Source: Bdellovibrionales bacterium
GTDB taxonomy: Bacteria; Bdellovibrionota; Bdellovibrionia; Bdellovibrionales; JAUICD01
Reading direction: 5' to 3'
DNA: 64,000 nucleotides
NCBI GenBank assembly: GCA_965262715.1
Contig: OZ253553.1
Span: 480,001 to 544,000, forward strand
The position numbers were made by a program, and so were the translations under genes. The notes beneath the pieces are model-generated. The model was not told the DNA's origin, made no database searches, and saw nothing but the letters and a program-made list of their open reading frames with translations. This document shows positions 2,071-50,515 of the stretch, one piece after another (the first letter of the stretch is position 1; every line of letters starts with the position of its first letter).

Positions 2071-2091
2071 GAAATATCAATAATTTATTTA

Positions 2092-2119
2092 CTTTCTACC
2101 GCCCACGCATGGGCGCAGC
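2092..2119 (-). CRISPR. Degenerate terminal CRISPR repeat (trailer end), separated from the array by a 155-bp structured element
   Basis: CTTTCTACCGCCCACGCATGGGCG matches the first 24 nt of the repeat, then cagc instead of taac. Confidence 0.9.
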
Positions 2120-2268
2120 TGTTTCCCTAAAAATGCTCTGACCTCTGGCCACTTTTTGACAACCAGCCTGACTAGCTTTCGCTGTCAGGCAAATAGCTGG
2201 TTGCCTAAAAAGATTGAGCATTTTTAGGAAGGAGAATCCTCTCATTTTTTTTTACAATGTTAAGGAAA
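2119..2268 (-). ncRNA. Structured dispersed element family A, copy 1, in the CRISPR spacer slot
   Basis: Minus-strand stems CCTAAAAATGCTC/GAGCATTTTTAGG, GCAACCAGC/GCTGGTTGT, CTGAC-AGC-GAAA-GCT-A-GTCAG and TGGCC-AGA-GGTCA; homologues elsewhere in the window. Function as an RNA is inferred. Confidence 0.6.
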
Positions 2269-2274
2269 TGAAAA

Positions 2275-3082
2275 CTTTCTACCGCCCACGCATGGGCGTA
2301 ACTCCTCAGGAAGTCTTAGATAAATTTGATTATTCTTTCTACCGCCCACGCATGGGCGTAACTTTAAGCGATGATGATTTAAACGAGATTTTCGCTTTCT
2401 ACCGCCCACGCATGGGCGTAACTCGCAGCGCGCAATAATAAAGAATAAACTATTCTTTCTACCGCCCACGCATGGGCGTAACTTAACTACGAAAAAGACT
2501 TTAAAAATTGTGCACTTTCTACCGCCCACGCATGGGCGTAACAGAATGGGTAATCGACTAAAAGTTACAGATCTCTTTCTACCGCCCACGCATGGGCGTA
2601 ACTGTTATTATTTCAACATTGAGACTGATTCAATCTTTCTACCGCCCACGCATGGGCGTAACCTAAATAAGATGATCCATCCTCTGCGATCTCCCTTTCT
2701 ACCGCCCACGCATGGGCGTAACTTCTTACACTGCACCTGTTTCTTGATATCATTCTTTCTACCGCCCACGCATGGGCGTAACTCGCAGCGCGTAATACTA
2801 AAGAATAAACTATTCTTTCTACCGCCCACGCATGGGCGTAACTTACACACTTTATGTACGCACTCAGCCTATTGCTTTCTACCGCCCACGCATGGGCGTA
2901 ACAAGTTGTATAGAAGGGATTCTCCACAATCGCTCTTTCTACCGCCCACGCATGGGCGTAACCACATTAGTAATAACCACATCATCAACACCTGCTTTCT
3001 ACCGCCCACGCATGGGCGTAACTCTTGACGCACCTATATCAAGAATAAATTCTTCTTTCTACCGCCCACGCATGGGCGTAAC
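2275..3082 (-). CRISPR. CRISPR array: 14 identical 28-bp repeats (minus strand GTTACGCCCATGCGTGGGCGGTAGAAAG) and 13 spacers of 32 bp
   Basis: Exact 60-bp period from 2275 to 3055; hairpin CGCCCA-TGCG-TGGGCG followed by an 8-nt handle GTAGAAAG; orientation inferred from the cas strand, the handle and the degenerate repeat at 2092. Confidence 0.99.
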
Positions 3083-3126: not shown

Positions 3127-3420
3127 TTAATGATTATTATTAATGCCTAATAGATGATTAAATATTCCTTCATTAGTTTGACGGCTTCTCAAGTCTCCAA
3201 AGACATAAGATCGAAATCCTAAATGATGAGTAGCATCAGACCATATAAATACCACTCTAAAATCTGTGTTTACTTTTTCCAATTCTTTTATAATTTCTTC
3301 TCTAATACCATTTTTTGGCCATACCCATACATCCATAGCTATTCTCCAACAGTACCTACCAATAATTCCACGAGCCTTATCACTTTTTTCTTTTAAAGCA
3401 TCATTAATAATAACAATCAT
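3127..3420 (-). CDS. cas2: Stand-alone Cas2
   Basis: 97 aa directly after cas1 and before the array; MIVIIND start and VFIWS..GF..YVFG end resemble I-E Cas2. Confidence 0.8.
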   Translation of the reverse strand: MIVIINDALKEKSDKARGIIGRYCWRIAMDVWVWPKNGIREEIIKELEKVNTDFRVVFIWSDATHHLGFRSYVFGDLRSRQTNEGIFNHLLGINNNH

Positions 3421-4296
3421 TCAATTATCCTTTTTAAAAACCTCATTTAATGTTCTCAATAAATAATTTAAAACGTCTATATCTAATACTAATTTCATAA
3501 ATTGATTTTTTATTTCTGTTAAACTCCATTTTTCTTTGGCAGCAATAAAAGAAAGATTTAAAGCAATGACAGGTTTGACAACATCTGCAAGATCATAAGA
3601 TAAACCTCCTCCTTTTGTTCTCCCATGTAGTACACCAATATTAGGATCATAACCTAAATGCAAAATGGTTAAATCTGCTAAAGAATAAGATAAAAAGTTC
3701 AAGAATGTGAGAAAATCTTTTTTCCCTCTAAAAGGTTTCCCTCTTGCCACTCTTGGAACATCATATTGCATAGCTAAAGATTTATAAGTTTCTCTTGCCC
3801 ATGCTCCTTCTTTTGATAAAAGTGTATTGATGGTGTCTTCATCCTTTCCTAAAGGAAATTCAGGTAGCTTTATAGAGGAATACTTCTTTATAAACAAAGA
3901 CCTCCTTTTAAAAAGAATTTTTGCAGATTCAATTCTTTTAACTTCATCACATATAATATTATGCTGTCTGATACGTGGAAGCGGTGACCTGTGCTGTGTA
4001 GAGCATAGATAAAGAGGAGCAGCATTGCCACCCATAACACCTATCAAACAACCCCTTGAAGATATAATCCTCATAGCTTCTGATGTGATGCTTGTGCCTG
4101 GACCTAAAAATAAGCCTCCAATGCCAGAAACTGGAATAGAATATTCTTCTTTTAAATTTGCTTTGAAGATTCTTATATCATTATCCTTTCTTTTAATCTT
4201 GCTATATTCTGTATAATAAAAAGGGATCCTTCTTGATAGAGGGATTAATGGTTGAACTTCATCAATACTGATATAATTCCGTTTAACTTGAGTCAT
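3421..4296 (-). CDS. cas1: Cas1 integrase (I-F/I-E-like)
   Basis: IP...LGPGTSIT..AM, EGAWAR, VLHGRTKGGGLSYDLAD..K (catalytic E/H/D present). Confidence 0.95.
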   Translation of the reverse strand: MTQVKRNYISIDEVQPLIPLSRRIPFYYTEYSKIKRKDNDIRIFKANLKEEYSIPVSGIGGLFLGPGTSITSEAMRIISSRGCLIGVMGGNAAPLYLCSTQHRSPLPRIRQHNIICDEVKRIESAKILFKRRSLFIKKYSSIKLPEFPLGKDEDTINTLLSKEGAWARETYKSLAMQYDVPRVARGKPFRGKKDFLTFLNFLSYSLADLTILHLGYDPNIGVLHGRTKGGGLSYDLADVVKPVIALNLSFIAAKEKWSLTEIKNQFMKLVLDIDVLNYLLRTLNEVFKKDN

Positions 4297-6899
4297 TTTT
4301 TAAAAATCTTATTTAGAGTTTCTTTTTTAACTAATCCAAATTTTTTATGATACACTCTATGTGTTGTTTTTCCACTGTCTTCATCAAAAAGTGCTTTTTT
4401 AAAACATTCGTTTATTTCTTTATCAAAATGAGAACATAATAAAGGTCGCTCTGTTTTAAACCCAAAAGTTTTTATGTACCTATTGTATTCAAATACTTCT
4501 TGATCATTGATTTTATTCGCCTTATTGCATTTTGATATTGTCTTCAAACAAGTGCTCATAGCTTCTTCTATCTTCTTTATAAACCATATTCTACTTTCAT
4601 TAAGTAAATCCTCATCTCGTAGCTGATTTTGTAATCGTCCTTTATCATCCACAACACAAGCACTTAAAAGACGAGATTCACCTCTAAATAAACTGTTAAA
4701 CACCTGTGAAGATGCTTTTTTGTTTTTACCAAGTGAAAACCTTTTTGGAATATATTTATTTAATTCTTCAATAGCCTTTTTTTGCTGTTTTTTTAAAACT
4801 CCAAGAGATATCTCGATGTTTTCTTTACTCCAAAAAGTATCATAAACTTGCATAAGTTTTCTAATAGAAATAGCTTTATTATCTTGATCTATAATAAAAG
4901 ATAAAAAATGCTTTTTCCAATTCTGATGAATTTTTTTGAAATCTGCTTTTCTTTCATCAAAAAAGTTCTCTGATTCTTCATTGTAAATAAAATGAATTTC
5001 TGCATCTGGTTTGTTTTCAAACCTATTGATTCTTCCAGCAGTCTGACAATCTGTATGAGGCTGTGATAACTCTACGAGTGCTTTATCAAAGCTAAGATTG
5101 TAAGAGGATTGCAACATTTTAGATGTAATGACTGAATTTTGACTTATATAAGCGGTTTTTTGTCCATGCTCTTTTAAAATATTTTCCAATAACTCTTTTT
5201 TGTCCTCAGTTGTAAAATAGGTATGTATCATTTTTATTTGATCTTTATAAGTTTTAAAAAGACGAGAAAAGACTTCTTGGCAAGACTCAACCCTCAAGAA
5301 AGAATACAAACAATCAGGAATAAATTCTTTAATATCTTCTATTTCTTTCTCTTGAGCAGAAATTTTAAATTTGTGACCTTCTCTTGACGATAGTTCATCT
5401 CTTTTGAAAACAAATTTATCTTCTATATTAATATTAATTAGTTTTAAAAGAGATGGTTCTGGTGTTCCACTGAGCATTAAAGTTTTAACTCCAGAATCAA
5501 GCCAGGACCTAATAGTTAATACCTCTTTTAAAGAAGGAATCATTTTAGGAATATCTTTAAATTCATGAAACTCATCAAGAACTAAATGAGATCGAAGCAT
5601 TTTTACAAACTCTGAAGACTGGCTTCTCTTATAATAAGGGCTTAAAAATCGATCAAAAACCATGATATTAATATCTAAAATTAAAAAGTCCTCCTCCTCC
5701 TCTGGGTTCCAATTACAATGTTGTCTTTGCCCATTAAAAACTCCTTCTATTTTGATTTTTTGATCCCCATAAACTCTTTGGCTATCTTCTTCTAAAGACT
5801 TAGCCCATTAAAAACTCCTTCTATTTTGATATCCCCATAAATATCTTCTTCTAAGAGACTGGCAGGTAAATAAACCAGTGATTTGATGTTGCCTTGGAAG
5901 GGCTATCATTAAAGGATACTCATTATGGCAGTGATGCCACCAATAAAGTGCAATACTGGTTTTACCTCCTGCTGGATCAACTCCGCAAACAGAAAGTTTT
6001 TTATCTGACATTTTTTGGGCTAAATCATTCTGTTCTTTACTTTTTGGATTGTTATTCAGGTTTTCTAAAAGAATAGGTTTTTCTCTTTTGTGTGAATTAG
6101 TTTTAAAATTTTTCCAGTCATTTAAAAACCCTTGTAATTCTTCTAGACTCCAAGAAGAAACTGTCCTATCAGACTCAAGAAGTAAATTTAAACAAAGCTG
6201 CTTGCAGGCATTATCTATAACAGAATCCATTTTATGTTTAAAAAATTCAGGATATTGAAATCTTTTAACATTTTTTTGATTTGGATCTTCTAAATCTGGC
6301 GGACAATTTATCTTAAGATATGTTGAAAAAGAACAAAAAAGATCACAAATAAATTTATAAATTTGAAAAAGAACAAAAAAGATCACAAATAAATTTGCTA
6401 TTTGACTTTCTTTTACACTTTCAAAAATGTCTTTAGAATTTTCAAAACGTATTTTATTTTTTTCATCACACCAATTAGCTGAGTGATGCCAATAAACAGA
6501 ATGTTGAACCGTATCTTCTATTTTTTCATTTTGAAAACCAATAAAATTAGCAATGTAAGCCCAAGATATCTCATTGTGGAATGGCCCTTTAAATGTTTTT
6601 GGTCTAGAAGATTCAGCATCTGTAGGGAGTTCTATTGAGTCATTGTTATTAGATTTTTTCTTAATGTGATTTTGAAAATTATCTGAAACTTTTCCTATAT
6701 CATGTAATAGACTGGAGTAAATCAAATATTTATTGATCTTTTCTTCTTTGTCTGACTTGAATTTTAAGGATTTTAACAATAAATGCCCATAGAGGGCTAT
6801 GGCTATGGAATGCTCTTTTAAAGGTTGCCCTTTTGTATTGGCCAATAAAGTATTTTCATTGTTTTTTTGATTCTTGTTCATTGCTTTCTTCCCAGTCAT
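4293..6899 (-). pseudogene. cas3: Cas3 HD nuclease-helicase split by an in-frame TAA at 5808-5810 (ORFs 5808..6899 and 4293..5663 share one frame)
   Basis: N part: EHS, LLHDIGK, HNEIS, YWHH and Walker A GGKT. C part: LDEFH, SGT, QTAGRINR. The sequence between them is open after the stop. No N-terminal Cas2 domain. Confidence 0.88.
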
Positions 6900-6935
6900 A
6901 TTTTTTAATTTTCATCCCTGCTTTTCTTAAATCTT

Positions 6936-7940
6936 TTATTTTATTTGTACAAAAATATCATCTTTTATCTCATAACCACGTCCCATTTCATCCAAGCCTT
7001 CATAACTTACAAATGCAACTCCACCTTCACCCCATCTGGCTAGATTTGGGCCTTGCCTTAATTTTTCGATAAGTTCATCCCAAGCCCAATGCTTAGAGAG
7101 GTCTTGTTGATCTTCAAAGGCACTTTGTGCAAAATAAACATTGAAATCCACGCAGGCAATAAACGCAGGCTTTCCTCTCACAATTTTATGATATTTTTTA
7201 TCGACCCAAAATTTTGTAAACTTGGGACAAGCAAATGAGCTAAATTGATTCTGATTAAAATTTGTAAAATTCTGTCCAAATTTAGAGTCCTTTAAACAAA
7301 GAGAGTTGACTTCATCAATTATTCCCATAGTCTTTTTATAGATTGGTGTTCCTTTTTGTTGCATCTTTTTAAAATAAATCTTCATTTCCTTACCAAGCTT
7401 TGTATTAGGTATAGCTTCACTTCTAGGATTTTTTAAATCATCATACTCTGAGTCCTTCTTTTCAACTTTACTTTCTGAAATTCCTTCATTAACTGTACCA
7501 AGTGAATTTGTTTCAAAAATATTTCTTAGTGGTTGTTTAAAAAGTTTTATTGTTGGATTTGCCGTTTCAAAAGTGTGTTGATGAAGGTTCACATTAGGAT
7601 CAGCTTTAAAGTTTTTTGTATGAACATCTCTTCTTTCAAAAAAAGTAGTAACATAAAGTTCTGATACTTTTTTACAGGCAGATGCTTGAACCATTATATC
7701 CAAAGTAGTATTCAACTTTTGAATTGAGATATCAGTGCTATTCTCTATTTTCTTTATTTTTTGAGTTTCTCCCATTAAATAAGCAAATAAACCCTTTAAA
7801 GAACTTGATCTCACAAGAGGTAAAACTTTTTGATTCTTATCTGTTGGATGATCTGAAAGATTAAGATTGACTGGATTAAAATCTTTATTTTGTTTGATAT
7901 AAATACCACCAGATCGAACTTTTAATTGAATATAAGACAT
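6936..7940 (-). CDS. cas5: Cas5, I-F2 (Cas5fv)-like large Cas5
   Basis: 334 aa after cas7; SLKGLFAYLMGE, IVRGKP and a C-terminal G-rich loop WGEGGVAFVS resemble Cas5fv as recalled (VMGVLNRLIGD, IWGNP, LGKKGLAYVS). Confidence 0.7.
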   Translation of the reverse strand: MSYIQLKVRSGGIYIKQNKDFNPVNLNLSDHPTDKNQKVLPLVRSSSLKGLFAYLMGETQKIKKIENSTDISIQKLNTTLDIMVQASACKKVSELYVTTFFERRDVHTKNFKADPNVNLHQHTFETANPTIKLFKQPLRNIFETNSLGTVNEGISESKVEKKDSEYDDLKNPRSEAIPNTKLGKEMKIYFKKMQQKGTPIYKKTMGIIDEVNSLCLKDSKFGQNFTNFNQNQFSSFACPKFTKFWVDKKYHKIVRGKPAFIACVDFNVYFAQSAFEDQQDLSKHWAWDELIEKLRQGPNLARWGEGGVAFVSYEGLDEMGRGYEIKDDIFVQIK

Positions 7941-7954
7941 AATCTTTCACCACC

Positions 7955-8911
7955 CTAAGCTGCTTTTTTAGATTCTTCAAAAAAATGATGAAACTTTATA
8001 CTATTCAATTTTTCTTTTAAATCAGATTCACCTATATCCATAGAATCTTCTCCATCAAAGAAATGAACTGTTAAAGAGCCTTTCAGATAAGCTAATCTAG
8101 CTCCTGCTTTAAGGCCATGTATCATTTTGATTCTTTGAAATACTACTTTTACCAAATGACAGATTTGCTCTTGATTAAGTAAAATACCTGTTCTTGGATT
8201 TTTATAAACTGCTGTTGAATCAATATAATCCTTCACTTCAAGAGTTTCATCCACGCCATGTTTTTTAAAGTATTCTTTAAGAAGACTTATAAACTCATCC
8301 TTTTTGTCTTTAGGGATCATTGCAAAATCATTATCAACTCCATATAAAGATAAAAATTGAAGCTCTTTGAGATTGATTCCACCTAGAAGTTCTTGTTGTC
8401 TATAAGGAACATTGTCTTTTGAGAACATAGCAATATCACCTTTTTCTTTGCCTTGTGCTTTCCCTTCTTCTTTCGGTTTTGAACTTGAACCTTGGTCAAA
8501 AACAATTTCTACATCACCAATGGTTTGAGCATCTGCTATATGTAGAGGAGAGCATCTTTTAAGACCTTTAAGACCTTTAGAATCACCTTTTTCATCCGGC
8601 GATAAATAGCCTCTCAAAAGCCCGACTTCTGAAGCGACCATTTGAATAAATTGATCAGCAAATGTTTTGCTGGAAGGCTGTCTTGGTTGAATATCTTTAA
8701 AAATCTCATGTCTTATACAACGTGAAGATGTATAGTCAATTTCTTTTTCTAAACCTTTATCATCTTTAATTTTAAATATTTTTGCACCAATATTATTCTT
8801 GTACCATTGATTACTGTCAGGATCTTTTCTATCTTTTTTAGCATTATAGTTATAGATTCCCCATACATCTAACTTTCCTTCAAAAGTAATACATTTAACT
8901 TGCTGACTCAT
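7955..8911 (-). CDS. cas7: Cas7, I-F2 (Cas7fv)-like backbone subunit
   Basis: YTSSRCIRHEIF, ASEVGLLRGY, KRCSPL, FSK, LQFLSL and GILLN are colinear with recalled Shewanella Cas7fv motifs (YISQNCIRHHLF, ASITGLIRGY, KRTSPL, LQFISL, GILLN). Confidence 0.85.
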   Translation of the reverse strand: MSQQVKCITFEGKLDVWGIYNYNAKKDRKDPDSNQWYKNNIGAKIFKIKDDKGLEKEIDYTSSRCIRHEIFKDIQPRQPSSKTFADQFIQMVASEVGLLRGYLSPDEKGDSKGLKGLKRCSPLHIADAQTIGDVEIVFDQGSSSKPKEEGKAQGKEKGDIAMFSKDNVPYRQQELLGGINLKELQFLSLYGVDNDFAMIPKDKKDEFISLLKEYFKKHGVDETLEVKDYIDSTAVYKNPRTGILLNQEQICHLVKVVFQRIKMIHGLKAGARLAYLKGSLTVHFFDGEDSMDIGESDLKEKLNSIKFHHFFEESKKAA

Positions 8912-9446
8912 ACTTTTCTCCTCCTTTAATTAAAATTAATCCATAGCCATAAGACTTTCTTGATCCTATGCCTTCTGTTAATGCTTGATTAAATTTATCA
9001 TGATCTAAGATGTGAAATAATCCTTCTATGTGAAAAGCATTATGAACATGAAATTTCTTTTCACATTGAGGACCAAGAAATTCACAAGTTGCTTTATCTT
9101 CTTTAAGACCAGATAAAAAACAAAATTTTTCCAATGCCTCTTTTGAATACATTTTTTTAGGGACAATTGTTTTTCCATCTGTATCACGAAGTGATATATG
9201 CTTGTTACAAAATGCAACATGAGTTTCTAATTCTACCATCTTACAACTCTTATTTACCAAAACAGTCTTTTGAAAATTATGATGCAGGGATTTTACAGGG
9301 GGTATTTTTGAGAGAACATATAGTAAGTCACCTTGAGATAAAGATGGACATATATTTCGAGGTGAATTAAATAATTCTCTGATCAGTGAGTGAATTGATG
9401 AGTAACCTGCTTCAAATAGAGAAAAACAATAAATATTTCTCATCAA
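8895..9446 (-). CDS. cas6: Cas6 endoribonuclease, Cas6e-like
   Basis: C-terminal EGLFHILDHDKFNQALTEGIGSRKSYGYGLI (G.G..K.yG.GL loop typical of Cas6e); first gene of the operon. Confidence 0.85.
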   Translation of the reverse strand: MMRNIYCFSLFEAGYSSIHSLIRELFNSPRNICPSLSQGDLLYVLSKIPPVKSLHHNFQKTVLVNKSCKMVELETHVAFCNKHISLRDTDGKTIVPKKMYSKEALEKFCFLSGLKEDKATCEFLGPQCEKKFHVHNAFHIEGLFHILDHDKFNQALTEGIGSRKSYGYGLILIKGGEKYESAS

Positions 9447-10430: not shown

Positions 10431-10641
10431 CTTTCTACCACCCACGCATGGGCGCGATTGTTTCCCTAAAAATGCTCTGGCCTCTGGCCACTTTTTGACA
10501 ACCAGCCTGACTAGCTCTCGCTGTCAGGCAAATAACTGGTTGTCTAAAAAGATTGAGCATTTTTAGGAAGGAGAATCTTCTCATTTTTTTAAACGATGTT
10601 AAGGAAATGAAAGCTTTCTACCGCCCACGCATGGGCGTAAC
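10431..10641 (-). CRISPR. CRISPR mini-array: perfect repeat (10614-10641), 155-bp family A element, degenerate repeat (10431-10458)
   Basis: Close homologue of 2092-2302, with identical 183-bp repeat-to-repeat spacing. Confidence 0.9.
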
Positions 10642-15252: not shown

Positions 15253-15607
15253 TTTAACCTAGTTCTTATTGACTGTGTTTTTTTATGTCTCTATTTAATA
15301 TGCTAAAGATCATTATAACATGTCAACTGTTTCCCTCAAAATAAACCAACCTCTATTTCACTAAAATGCACCTACTCTCTCGAGACGAGTCTCTGATCAT
15401 TTTTGGCAATGACTTCGATAGTCTTGCGTCTCAGTTCCCAGCAATGTTTGGTTATTGTTCACCATGGATACCTATCTCTTATGACCATGTATGTAGTAGA
15501 GCTTGTGATTTTTGCTAGGTATGTGAAGGTATAAGTGGCGGAAAAAGTATCTCCCTAAAAAAAGCTGCATGAAATGGCAATAATCTACATATTATATCGG
15601 GTTATAT

Positions 15608-16947: not shown

Positions 16948-17201
16948 AGAAGCCATCTCAAAAATAAAGTTTTATATCACCCGTTGAGAAATAAAAGCAT
17001 TTCCCTTAACATTGTGTAAAAAAATGAGAGATATCTACCTTACTCAAAATAAACAGATTTTTGAGGTAGCCAGCATTTTACTGACAGTGTGAACTGTCAG
17101 GCTGGTTACCCAAAAACAACCAGAGGCCCGCCTCGAGGGGTTGGTTTATTTTGAGTGAAATAAATTAAATACAAAACATAATATAACTAAAGATGGCTTC
17201 T
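16948..17201 (+). mobile_element. MITE-like unit bounded by 11-bp inverted repeats (AGAAGCCATCT/AGATGGCTTCT) containing a family A copy at 17000-17160
   Basis: Terminal IRs seen directly; inner stems ACTCAAAATAAAC/GTTTATTTTGAGT and CTGACAGT-GTGA-ACTGTCAG. Confidence 0.65.
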
Positions 17202-17623
17202 TACTCAAAATGGACAGACTTGACAAGAGCCACGATAGTGGCCCTACGGGAAGCCGTAAAGGTCCATTACCATTCGAGTTCAATGCTTCGATTTGTAAGC
17301 ACTTTATTTGAATGCCGGATAAGTAAGAAGTGATAATAGCTAATGATATGAATGGGAAAGAGTTCTGGCCTCAGGGCAATGATTTTGAAATTCAAGAAAT
17401 AAATTGAAGGTCCAGCTCAATTTGAGTGAAACAGTTCTTTTATGCGGTACTTAAATTAAGAGGTTGTTTTGAAAACGTGGATATTAGAAGTAATTTTGAG
17501 ATGAGTTCTAAATATGTACTGAAAAGAAACATTTTTAAAAAAATAAACTTACAAACTGTTTTTAAGTAATAAAAAAATAAATTCCTCTTTCACAAAAAGA
17601 GAAAAAACTTATATACTAAGCGT

Positions 17624-26964: not shown

Positions 26965-27206
26965 GATTAGGATTCTTTTATTTGGCCTCGTTTAATTTAT
27001 CTTAACTTTCCTATGTCCTTATCCTCATTTCAATAGATGACTCAAATCTTTATAGTTAACAAAAAGATTTGGAGTGATCCGCAAATGACAGGAATTGTAA
27101 GGAATGATTTCCTTTAAATATAAAAAAATGAGTATATCTCTATTCTTTCTGGGAAACTTATCAAGCTAGTAACCTGTTTATGGCAACTGTTGCTTATGTA
27201 TCAATC

Positions 27207-33328: not shown

Positions 33329-33424
33329 GAATATATCTATCTTATTTTTAATCTCTTCTGGTTTCTAGGATATGTTGATATTTTATTAGAAGCGGTCTCA
33401 AAAATGAAAATATAAGAAGTTGTC

Positions 33425-33586
33425 CTGTTTCCCTAAAAATGAACTGGCCTCTCGAGGCGAGCCTCTGGCCATTTTTGGACAATCAGCCTGAAGACTTACA
33501 TCTTCAAGAAAATGCTGATTGTCTCAAAAACCTGTTCATTTTTAGGAAGGAGATTCTCTTCGTTTTTTTACATGATGTTAAGGAAA
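33425..33586 (-). repeat. Structured element family A copy
   Basis: Minus: CCTAAAAATGAAC/GTTCATTTTTAGG, GACAATCAGC/GCTGATTGTC, TTGAAGAT-GTAA-GTCTTCAG. Confidence 0.8.
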
Positions 33587-33758
33587 TTGTTTCTGAAAAC
33601 TTGGTTACTTTTTAACAAATTACCAATAAACTTAAAGTTGTCCTGTTGAGAGACAGATATTTTATCAATTCGCAACAAGTTTATAAATTTCTGAACTTAA
33701 ATGTTGTCTTAATACTAGACTAGATAGTCCAGTGTCTTAATGATTTCAGCTACTTAGC

Positions 33759-49684: not shown

Positions 49685-49813
49685 AGGTCAATTACCCTTA
49701 TAATTGTTATATTTATATATTTTAGAGCATTAAACTATGTTATTCAAGCCTCTTTTGTCAAACCTTTTACTCAGGTTTGTTTCATTCAAATAAAATAAGC
49801 GTTTAGCTAAGGG

Positions 49814-49962
49814 CTGTTTCAGTAAAAGTGCATCTCGCCTCTGGCGACTTTTTGGCAGTAAGCCTGGCGGTTAGAACCGTCGGCAAATAGCTTACTGCCT
49901 AGAAAGGCTAATGCATTTTAGTAGGGAGGATCTTCTTGTTTCTTAACACAATGTTAGGGAAA
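49814..49962 (-). repeat. Structured element family A copy (diverged)
   Basis: GGCAGTAAGC/GCTTACTGCC and TCGCC-AGA-GGCGA stems; same terminal motifs. Confidence 0.75.
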
Positions 49963-50091
49963 TTTTATTCTTGCCATCGGATCAGTACCTAGATTTATTT
50001 CATGGACAATCCTCAAAGAGGCTCACCTCGAGAGGCTCACCTCGAGAGGCTTGTCTTCTATTCATTTTGAGTAAAACAGAATGAAGGAAAT

Positions 50092-50253
50092 TTTCTTTAA
50101 CATGATGTAAAAGAATGAAGATATTCTCCTTACTTAAAATAAATGGATTTTTGAGGCAGTCAGCATTTTGTTGACGGGGATACATCCCGTAGTGTTAACC
50201 GTCAAGTTGGCTGCCCAAAAACAACCAGAGGTTGATTTATTTTGAGTGAAATA
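50092..50253 (+). repeat. Structured element family A copy, preceded by a partial copy (~50017-50078) and followed by a TIR-like end (~50305-50319)
   Basis: ACTTAAAATAAAT/ATTTATTTTGAGT, GGCAGTCAGC/GTTGGCTGCC, TTGACGG/CCGTCAA, CAACC-AGA-GGTTG. Confidence 0.75.
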
Positions 50254-50515
50254 AATTAAATACAAAACTGGTATCTTTTTTAAAACTTTTCTCTCTAGGA
50301 GCATTTTTGAGATGGCTTTTATTATATTTTTTGATAATAATAAAAATTACTTAGCTATTAATGACTTAAAAAGCATAGATAAACTTTAAAGGAGCTTTGG
50401 AACGACTGATTTAAGTGTGTAAATAATTCATAGTTTGTGATATATAACTATTTCTTTTTTACATACAAGTTGTTTGCTATTGATAATTTGGTTGAATTTT
50501 GATATAAGACCGGAC

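Follow-up and report, generated by a model that had tools for sequence, protein, structure and literature searches.

The described systems closest to the repeats reported here include the REP/REPIN/BIME sequences of the RAYT system, which are non-autonomous and extragenic, occur in hundreds of copies with bulged hairpins, form tandem arrays, insert into existing copies, and are likely recognized as single-stranded DNA (ssDNA). The rolling-circle IS91/ISCR elements and the one-ended derivatives of IS801 lack true terminal inverted repeats, combine one fixed with one variable end, have a structured end, and carry flanking DNA along. MITEs moved by DDE transposases, among them the Correia and RUP elements, are short, non-coding, and present in high copy number, as are those of IS1634, which also shows target duplications of variable length. 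Integron attC sites vary in sequence while conserving their structure and their unpaired bases. Finally, cassettes coding for four-helix-bundle proteins (TIGR02436/PF05635; e.g., Xcc0516 and Avd-like proteins) and the 23S intervening sequences have structured flanks and a mobility that has not been explained.

We describe a repeat family that shares the above properties with these systems, found in a Bdellovibrionales genome of 2.94 Mb and 33.6% G+C (G000) and in a sister genome of the same genus, a Bdellovibrionales MAG (G001), both with a completeness rating of 90–93%. Its unit is a 148-bp three-way junction (cloverleaf), at ~150 nt per copy. It differs from attC sites, which are typified by the pairing of their R boxes, by cassette arrays, and by IntI, in having no end-to-end RYYYAAC/GTTRRRY pairing, no cassette array, and no IntI. 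Like REP and REPIN sequences, it is a high-copy extragenic imperfect palindrome; however, whereas a REP is a palindrome of 20–50 nt with a preceding conserved tetranucleotide, usually GTAG (as defined in PMC8266576), and forms inverted doublets, the present unit is a 148-nt three-way junction with a separate head, has no doublet, and, unlike REP, shows strongly covarying stems. The largely open-access literature that we consulted on repeats of Bdellovibrionota, non-autonomous MITEs of the rolling-circle type, four-helix-bundle genes accompanied by repeats, the mechanisms of REPINs, and template switching showed no account of this family. It is apparently an undescribed non-autonomous structured bacterial repeat with a non-standard insertion footprint.

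The family came to attention in a 64-kb stretch of G000, the whole of which was analyzed and is hereinafter called the window (Table 1). A covariance model built from 30 copies, the six of the window among them, scores those six at 136–158 bits and the next window match at 19 bits; they can be aligned across ~150 bases, and all six lie at the positions and on the strands given in an earlier note on this DNA. The fragments that it listed near 15327, 27107, and 50017 are real as well, though none of them is a whole copy. Its account of the outer stems, the side hairpins with AGA loops, and the apical loops GAAA, GAGA, GTGA, and GTAA agrees with the sequences after two corrections: the side loop of the 17000 copy contains an additional mini-hairpin of 14 nt, and the apical loops are TCTA in the 49814 copy and GTTA in the 50092 copy. 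Across G000, a profile search recovered 532 matches (none in the reversed genome), which reduce to 488 non-overlapping ones once opposite-strand shadows are dropped: 281 of full length, 126 truncated on the 3′ side, 70 on the 5′ side, and 11 on both. Together they sum to 60,485 bp, or 2.1% of the genome, and group into 223 sites, not one of which lies wholly within an ORF of at least 100 aa.

Table 1. Features of the focal copy and of the window, in window coordinates. Positions of the six full copies are those matched by the covariance model; the copies proper run from 17001..17163 (focal), 2119..2268, 10458..10607, 33425..33586, 49814..49962, and 50092..50254.
Feature	Position	Strand	Description
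Larger non-coding host element of focal copy	16948..17509	.	~16-bp terminal inverted repeats
Full copy, focal	16999-17165	+	By covariance model; head and three-way-junction body
Leader, 34 nt, 5′ of head	16967..17000	+	Paralogous host modules are without leader and copy
Head, sequence-conserved	17001..17020	+	TTYCCYTAACAT with TTAACA-N3-TGTWAA inverted repeat
Outer stem closing the three-way junction	17042..17156	+	17042-17054 pairs with 17144-17156
Long hairpin	17058..17116	+	Bulged A, 5-6-nt pyrimidine bulge, GNNA apical loop (GTGA at 17089-17092)
Side hairpin, C-AGA-G loop	17117..17143	+	With 14-nt mini-hairpin expansion in focal copy
Diverged relative	17172..17433	+	Outer stem and 3′ end shared with focal copy; head degenerate, inner hairpins different; ~140 bp interruption
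Full copy	2117-2270	-	Flanked by last intact and degenerate repeat of CRISPR array, Cas7fv-like system
Full copy	10456-10609	-	Between two CRISPR repeats, upstream of cas genes
5′-truncated remnant	15327..15428	-	Long-hairpin end, side loop, two stacked 3′ tails
Degenerate head without body	27107..27150	+	17 bits
Full copy, side-loop expansion	33423-33588	-	Adjoins host-element inverted repeat at 33388
Full copy	49812-49964	-	Upstream of rplM
Variant 3′-cut module, inverted side-loop expansion	49980..50082	-	Contains the fragment 50017-50078
Full copy, apical-stem expansion	50090-50256	+	Followed by host-element inverted repeat ending at 50320

Some copies are set in CRISPR arrays. Three of them (window 2091–3081 and 10431–10641; G000:C1:476742) are lodged between an intact and a degenerate CRISPR repeat of a Cas7fv-like system, where they resemble a spacer of ~158 nt, and at one G001 locus (L189) a copy lies beside a similar CRISPR repeat. 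The window itself has a CRISPR-Cas locus at 3130–9446 that codes for a divergent Cas1, a Cas3 whose HD and helicase parts are separate ORFs, a Cas7fv-like protein, and Cas6; there are five cas1 loci in G000. At G000:C1:2607185–2608435, three double-copy units alternate with 5′-truncated repeats and differing spacers where a 60-repeat array ends, close to a gene coding for a 1,343-aa Cas12-type protein, and a similar block is present at G000 2693535–2694250. A spacer of the 60-repeat array, at G000:C1:2604939, may match the apical stem-loop of one copy: 21 of its 24 bases agree, which is better than 100 shuffles, but it is the best of 115 spacers tested.

The unit is made of two parts, a head conserved in sequence and a body that folds into the three-way junction. 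Head pairs do not covary (across the 6 pairs, 30 sequences show one double change), and we predict the head to be a protein-binding site. The body combines the outer stem with a long hairpin, the bulged A of which is kept in 98%, and a 5-bp hairpin with an AGA loop; copies terminate 3–9 nt past the outer stem. Relative to shuffled sequences, the focal copy folds with z-scores of –6.4 as RNA and –6.8 as DNA. Among 220 distinct full G000 copies (mean pairwise identity 70%), the 11 best-scoring column pairs are without exception nested Watson–Crick pairs, and 5 column pairs lie above every value obtained from 20 tree-simulated null alignments in an in-house, R-scape-like test. In the 30-sequence alignment, 90.5% of cells pair vs 78.8% in shuffles, with 219 vs 77 double changes. 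The compensatory base changes that had been reported from the window are thus borne out as significant covariation against a tree-aware null. The accompanying claim of conserved GNRA loops needs qualification: GNRA is the majority apical loop, but the rule is GNNA rather than strictly GNRA (132 GNRA, 32 GNYA, and 32 ANNA loops among 220 in G000; 119 GNRA and 80 GNYA among 235 in G001). Rfam 15 gave no match at the gathering threshold in the window, and the best E over 10 copies was 0.085, in keeping with the claim that the family is an unrecognized one, and no REP or IS-end match to the repeat was found.

The evidence on the nature of the folded molecule leans toward ssDNA rather than RNA, given the GNNA loops, the low share of G–T pairs, the weak gene-orientation bias, and an excess of paired swaps. 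GNNA loops are described in PMC10085684 as a family of stable DNA tetraloops. About 92% of the stem cells are Watson–Crick, next to 167 G–T (~3% of pairs) and 129 A–C combinations; the strand preference of G–U pairs noted earlier is real but weak, with G–T to A–C counts on the top strand, in distinct contexts, of 141:109 in G000 (p=0.05) and of 18:6 in G001, where the pair list was imperfectly registered. The top strand is the better folder in 144 of 220 copies as RNA and in 165 of 220 with DNA parameters. In gaps between co-directional genes, 74 copies are co-oriented and 54 opposed (p=0.09), in tight gaps 14 and 5, and all 12 copies of the ribosomal-protein region lie on the coding strand; an RNA stage would explain such co-orientation with transcription. 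Copies show a weak leading-strand bias (100/169). Along G000, several sign changes of GC skew suggest large inversions.

Between nearest neighbors with at most 10 differences, double Watson–Crick swaps number 37 in G001 (~1.2 expected; 48 single changes) and 10 in G000 (~1.4 expected; 57 single changes). According to PMC5941160, template-switch correction of inverted repeats yields such paired swaps, and they fit correction of one arm on the other by template switching or an exchange of modules; counting against the mechanism that we favor below, G000 pairs with at most 5 differences have no double swap next to 19 single changes. As covariation can be explained by arm correction or module exchange, it is no proof of a functional RNA here, and much of it may stem from templated arm correction and module swapping instead of stepwise selection. 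The interpretation of the element in the earlier note, a selected RNA or ssDNA structure, is partly supported, with a lean toward ssDNA. A self-cleavage role is without support, since this is a high-copy mobile repeat and not a single structured RNA gene.

The repeat is a genus-restricted non-coding mobile repeat. A single copy as query recovered matches in G001 and in a further assembly (G004) and none in 38 other relatives, and the covariance model found none in 150 other genomes of the class, at 20 candidates scored per genome. The G004 matches are confined to two small contigs (G004:C1 and G004:C4), the proteins of which are mostly 84–95% identical to those of G000, vs 33–75% for a core G004 region; to judge from these sequences, the two contigs are probably a bin contamination, stemming from another, third species of this genus and binned with G004 by error. 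Searches with the head pattern across 31 of 64 parts of the genome contigs gave at least 128 loci, all of those listed coming from one record; these G001 loci, which cover part of the genome, contain 399 distinct 5′-intact and 260 full copies, with a median identity of 0.94 between nearest neighbors with unrelated flanks. The head pattern was absent from viral contigs, and its one match in metagenome contigs has no body and was set aside as a chance match to the head; one copy searched against phage and plasmid collections found no match.

For only 10 of 101 copy-flanked G001 genes does the best G000 match have a copy on the corresponding side (some of these matches being paralogues), which indicates that the two species were colonized independently. 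Among the 50 distant G000 pairs listed (93–96% identical), the identity ends within 0–11 nt of both ends in 15. The G000 pairs at 97% identity or above share their flanks and ride in larger composite blocks; as the youngest duplications are thus those of larger blocks, part of the dispersal is carriage by a host inverted-repeat element. This non-coding host element, with AGAAGCCATCTCAAAA-type inverted repeats, carries from one to 16 copies in G000; 21 of the 24 inverted-repeat pairs listed enclose at least one repeat match, some of these pairs being chance pairings across several kb. In paralogues of the host element without the focal copy, 30 other bases replace 200 (joint at 16966–17167). 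Contigs from four sequencing runs for each of two regions showed no presence/absence polymorphism. Copies are also enriched at older copies and at tRNA genes (12/34 of the latter vs 10%). At two places (G000:C1:2135437 and 1565876), tails of the element end at or supply the purine-rich stretch before the apparent starts of genes that we take to be rpsN and uppS.

The junctions have no fixed target-site duplication (TSD): the best offset accounts for 14 of 122 against 5.5 expected, and lengths are inconsistent. The bases immediately beyond the two ends do not covary, by which an extended terminal pairing is rejected, and the tetramers upstream of copies differ between G000 and G001, with no fixed target word. 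At the 3′ side, the junction lies 3–9 nt beyond a terminal GA, while the 5′ leader before the head is ragged (0–35 nt overall, 0–33 nt at the junctions of copies within copies), with leader families cut at differing points. Where copies have inserted into copies, 33 distinct G001 junctions comprise 10 that duplicate 9–110 nt, 2 blunt ones, and 21 that delete 6–73 nt, and 11 G000 junctions comprise no duplication, 2 blunt ones, and 9 deletions; this set leaves aside leaders above 34 nt and breaks at the very end, and its classes, derived from local alignment, may combine primary insertion with later recombination. Stacked 3′ tails result from 14 of the 33 G001 junctions, which resume at one CAGAGG microhomology. 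At 12 of 160 independent G000 sites (none in shuffled pairs), 21–117 nt of unrelated upstream flank are repeated within 12 nt of the 3′ end; 7 of the 12 are tandem units followed by another copy, and local slippage alone could make them. Among 201 G001 sites there is no clear case of flank duplication, the three non-element matches being inverted heads. Distances between heads show no correlation with those between long hairpins (rho 0.07 and 0.03), whereas odd and even columns within one module correlate at rho 0.82 and 0.85. With hardly any linkage among the head, the long hairpin, and the side module (rho 0.03–0.24), the copies are chimeras, as would arise from replacement-type insertion into older copies.

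We tentatively favor, at somewhat short of an even chance, the reading that the repeat is copied to new sites as ssDNA by primed synthesis and not by cut-and-paste. A free 3′ end at the target, preferably in structured DNA or in an older copy, would be extended on the donor; synthesis would begin within the leader that precedes the conserved head, at a point that varies, and proceed through the body; the new strand would fold and halt a few bases past the outer stem; and its 3′ end would be joined to the target again close by, so that a duplication or deletion of variable size is left. Such a scheme would account at once for the fixed 3′ end, the ragged leader, the duplications and deletions, the stacked tails, the chimeras and, by arm correction in the folded state, the paired swaps. 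Conservation of the head, in turn, points to a protein that recognizes its sequence.

The sole candidate for such a protein with positional support is a four-helix-bundle protein of 99 residues, which matches TIGR02436 and, weakly, Xcc0516, and which is presumably related to Avd. Xcc0516 is a pentamer whose function is given as not known in PMC4990558, where a past proposal that it aids the mobility of the 23S intervening sequence is mentioned. Matches to PF05635 number 19 in G000, 14 in G001, and 19 in G004, with none in G002 and G003. In both species the repeat adjoins or lies inside four-helix-bundle cassettes; it differs from these in having no ORF, in not occurring in rRNA genes as far as examined, and in that most copies lie far off. 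All 14 G001 loci have a copy within 300 bp, 13 of them directly downstream on the same strand, vs 24 of 98 genes when six 20-kb regions were taken without selection, and in 5 of 9 intact G001 genes a bare head was seen by eye just before the upstream heptamer arm. In G000, a copy accompanies 22 of 44 loci, where the baseline is 10–12.5% and IS or Rpn genes reach 13 of 120. Purifying selection acts on the ORFs (dN/dS 0.06 and 0.11), and in both species copies break the gene near codon 65. Among four-helix-bundle fragments, 3′-intact ones are in excess by 26 to 3, but this ratio is confounded by composites in the host inverted-repeat element and is given no weight here.

Since tRNA genes are enriched for copies too, the link may be one of target preference, and the G001 loci may be descendants of few events. 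Moreover, only 30 four-helix-bundle matches lie within 250 bp of 400 G000 copies, and 41 G001 copies taken without selection have none nearby; such a gene is present in 27 of 61 genomes of the order; none of the 17 four-helix-bundle loci of the G004 core has the repeat; and the covariance model found only weak palindrome matches (at most 28 bits) at such loci from six other genomes. We think it quite unlikely that the repeat is the non-autonomous partner of this gene, that gene and downstream cloverleaf form the full unit, of which the bare repeats would be 5′-truncated copies, and that the pentamer would bind the folded strand and recruit host polymerase for transposase-free target-primed copying. 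Elsewhere, two different four-helix-bundle genes diverge across a long palindrome (L272, L273, and L274, in G025, G035, and G031, respectively), such diverging pairs being multi-copy with a common end in G021, and four such genes of G004 (L249–L252) have an identical in-frame insertion of 22 residues.

A minor but real chance attaches to an HUH nuclease of the RAYT or IS91 type, lost or too diverged to score, which would cut the folded strand at variable distances and so spread and multiply the copies in the manner of REP/BIME; this explanation has the ssDNA fold in common with primed copying. Bulged hairpins, high extragenic copy number, tandem arrays, and insertion into copies are REPIN behavior according to PMC3116915, TnpA-REP cleaves 5′ or 3′ of the hairpin (as reported in PMC8266576), and one fixed and one variable end are given as typical of IS801 in PMC3189936. 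However, G001, the genome with the younger copies, has no match to Y1 (nor to RVT_1, maturase, or IS110), and the sole Y1 gene of G000 is IS200-like, has its own hairpin ends and is not flanked by repeat copies, as a RAYT gene would be. The repeat has neither the GTAG foot of REP, nor a fixed target word and ends that match a resident Y1 element as in IS200/IS605, nor the fixed target tetranucleotide and clean insertion of IS91/ISCR. Neither genome has a match to Rep_trans or relaxase, or to RecT; searches for Y2 were blank in 5 of 5 genomes and likewise in 14 of 14 controls, and the Rep_1 search was blank with blank controls. A possible likeness of the head to an ISCR oriIS consensus found no confirmation in the literature consulted and was set aside.

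A further alternative to which we give a low probability is a SINE-like retro-copy, in which a top-strand RNA trimmed to the outer stem would be reverse-transcribed at target nicks, possibly with help from an Avd-like protein. Target-primed reverse transcription leaves copies with a constant 3′ end, truncated at the 5′ side, with duplications of variable length and a few additional bases at the junction, a footprint seen here; moreover, GNRA loops are in the majority and the copies of the ribosomal-protein region are co-oriented with their genes. Avd, a pentamer, is reported in PMC6182149 to bind a non-coding RNA segment and to support a reverse transcriptase (RT). On the other hand, retrons, group II introns, and SINE-like elements require an RT in every host, adjacent in the case of a retron, and G001 has no match to one, while G000 has three RT matches, the repeat copy nearest to any being ~440 bp from a retron-like gene. 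The 80 GNYA loops among 235 in G001 and the paucity of G–T pairs also speak against an RNA, as do the private mutations of G000, which are strand-symmetric and without adenine bias; DGR-like adenine mutagenesis was accordingly rejected for G000. Those of G001 show a mild A>G and G>T asymmetry.

We consider it very improbable that the repeat is a MITE moved by a DDE transposase, e.g., that of IS1634. Elements of the IS1634 type are present in G000 and G001, several in G000 (e.g., those at G000:C1:294330, 599008, 1026150, and 1818410) having variable target duplications of ~40–120 bp, in line with the long variable repeats reported for the family in PMC2266710, and the ends of the repeat have an imperfect inverted match of 4–9 bp. 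However, its ends are asymmetric, without terminal inverted repeats matching a resident IS seen by us; the IS ends examined (CCTGA..., GAGGTTG..., GGTGGATT..., and others, IS3 ends excepted) match neither repeat end. The flanking bases do not covary, a fixed TSD is lacking, and DDE transposition does not yield ragged leaders or deletions of the target. Least credible of all is a host-selected regulatory RNA or terminator-like structure passively amplified within larger repeats, which the short G+C hairpin with a run of T behind it on the top strand and the copies near tRNA genes and the ribosomal-protein operon might suggest, but which is at odds with positions that are not conserved between the species, with 54 of 128 copies in co-directional gaps that oppose the genes, with copies that interrupt one another, and with the lack of a matching Rfam family.

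Other candidate mobilizers were examined along with these. The DEDD recombinase of IS110, which works with a bridge or seek RNA, has no match in G000 and G001. The TnpB-type matches are genes of 1,340–1,365 aa beside cas1 and gave no lead, and two tyrosine recombinases, whose best scores are as XerD and XerA-like proteins, led nowhere. In G001, six related small cassettes with only a resolvase gene (L280–L285; 85–96% identity), several of them behind ankyrin genes, were rejected, as their ends do not match and copies lie near one in six. By inspection, no recurrent ORF lies downstream of 13 heads that have no body.

The present family bears on how structured bacterial repeats that have no cognate transposase come about and disperse, and on the role of the widespread four-helix-bundle (23S-IVS, Avd-like) proteins. 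It offers ~750 copies that can be read in two species, and their junctions agree with none of the standard chemistries of transposition; the 99-residue candidate protein and a 150-nt substrate are a concrete pair for a direct binding test. For the discovery of RNA motifs, it matters that a repeat of high copy number can show strong covariation without being a functional RNA. If the mobilizer were a lost RAYT-like enzyme, the repeats would be a new REP-like family; if the four-helix-bundle reading were true, they would represent a class of mobile DNA new to bacteria, and TIGR02436 proteins would have their first function beyond DGRs.
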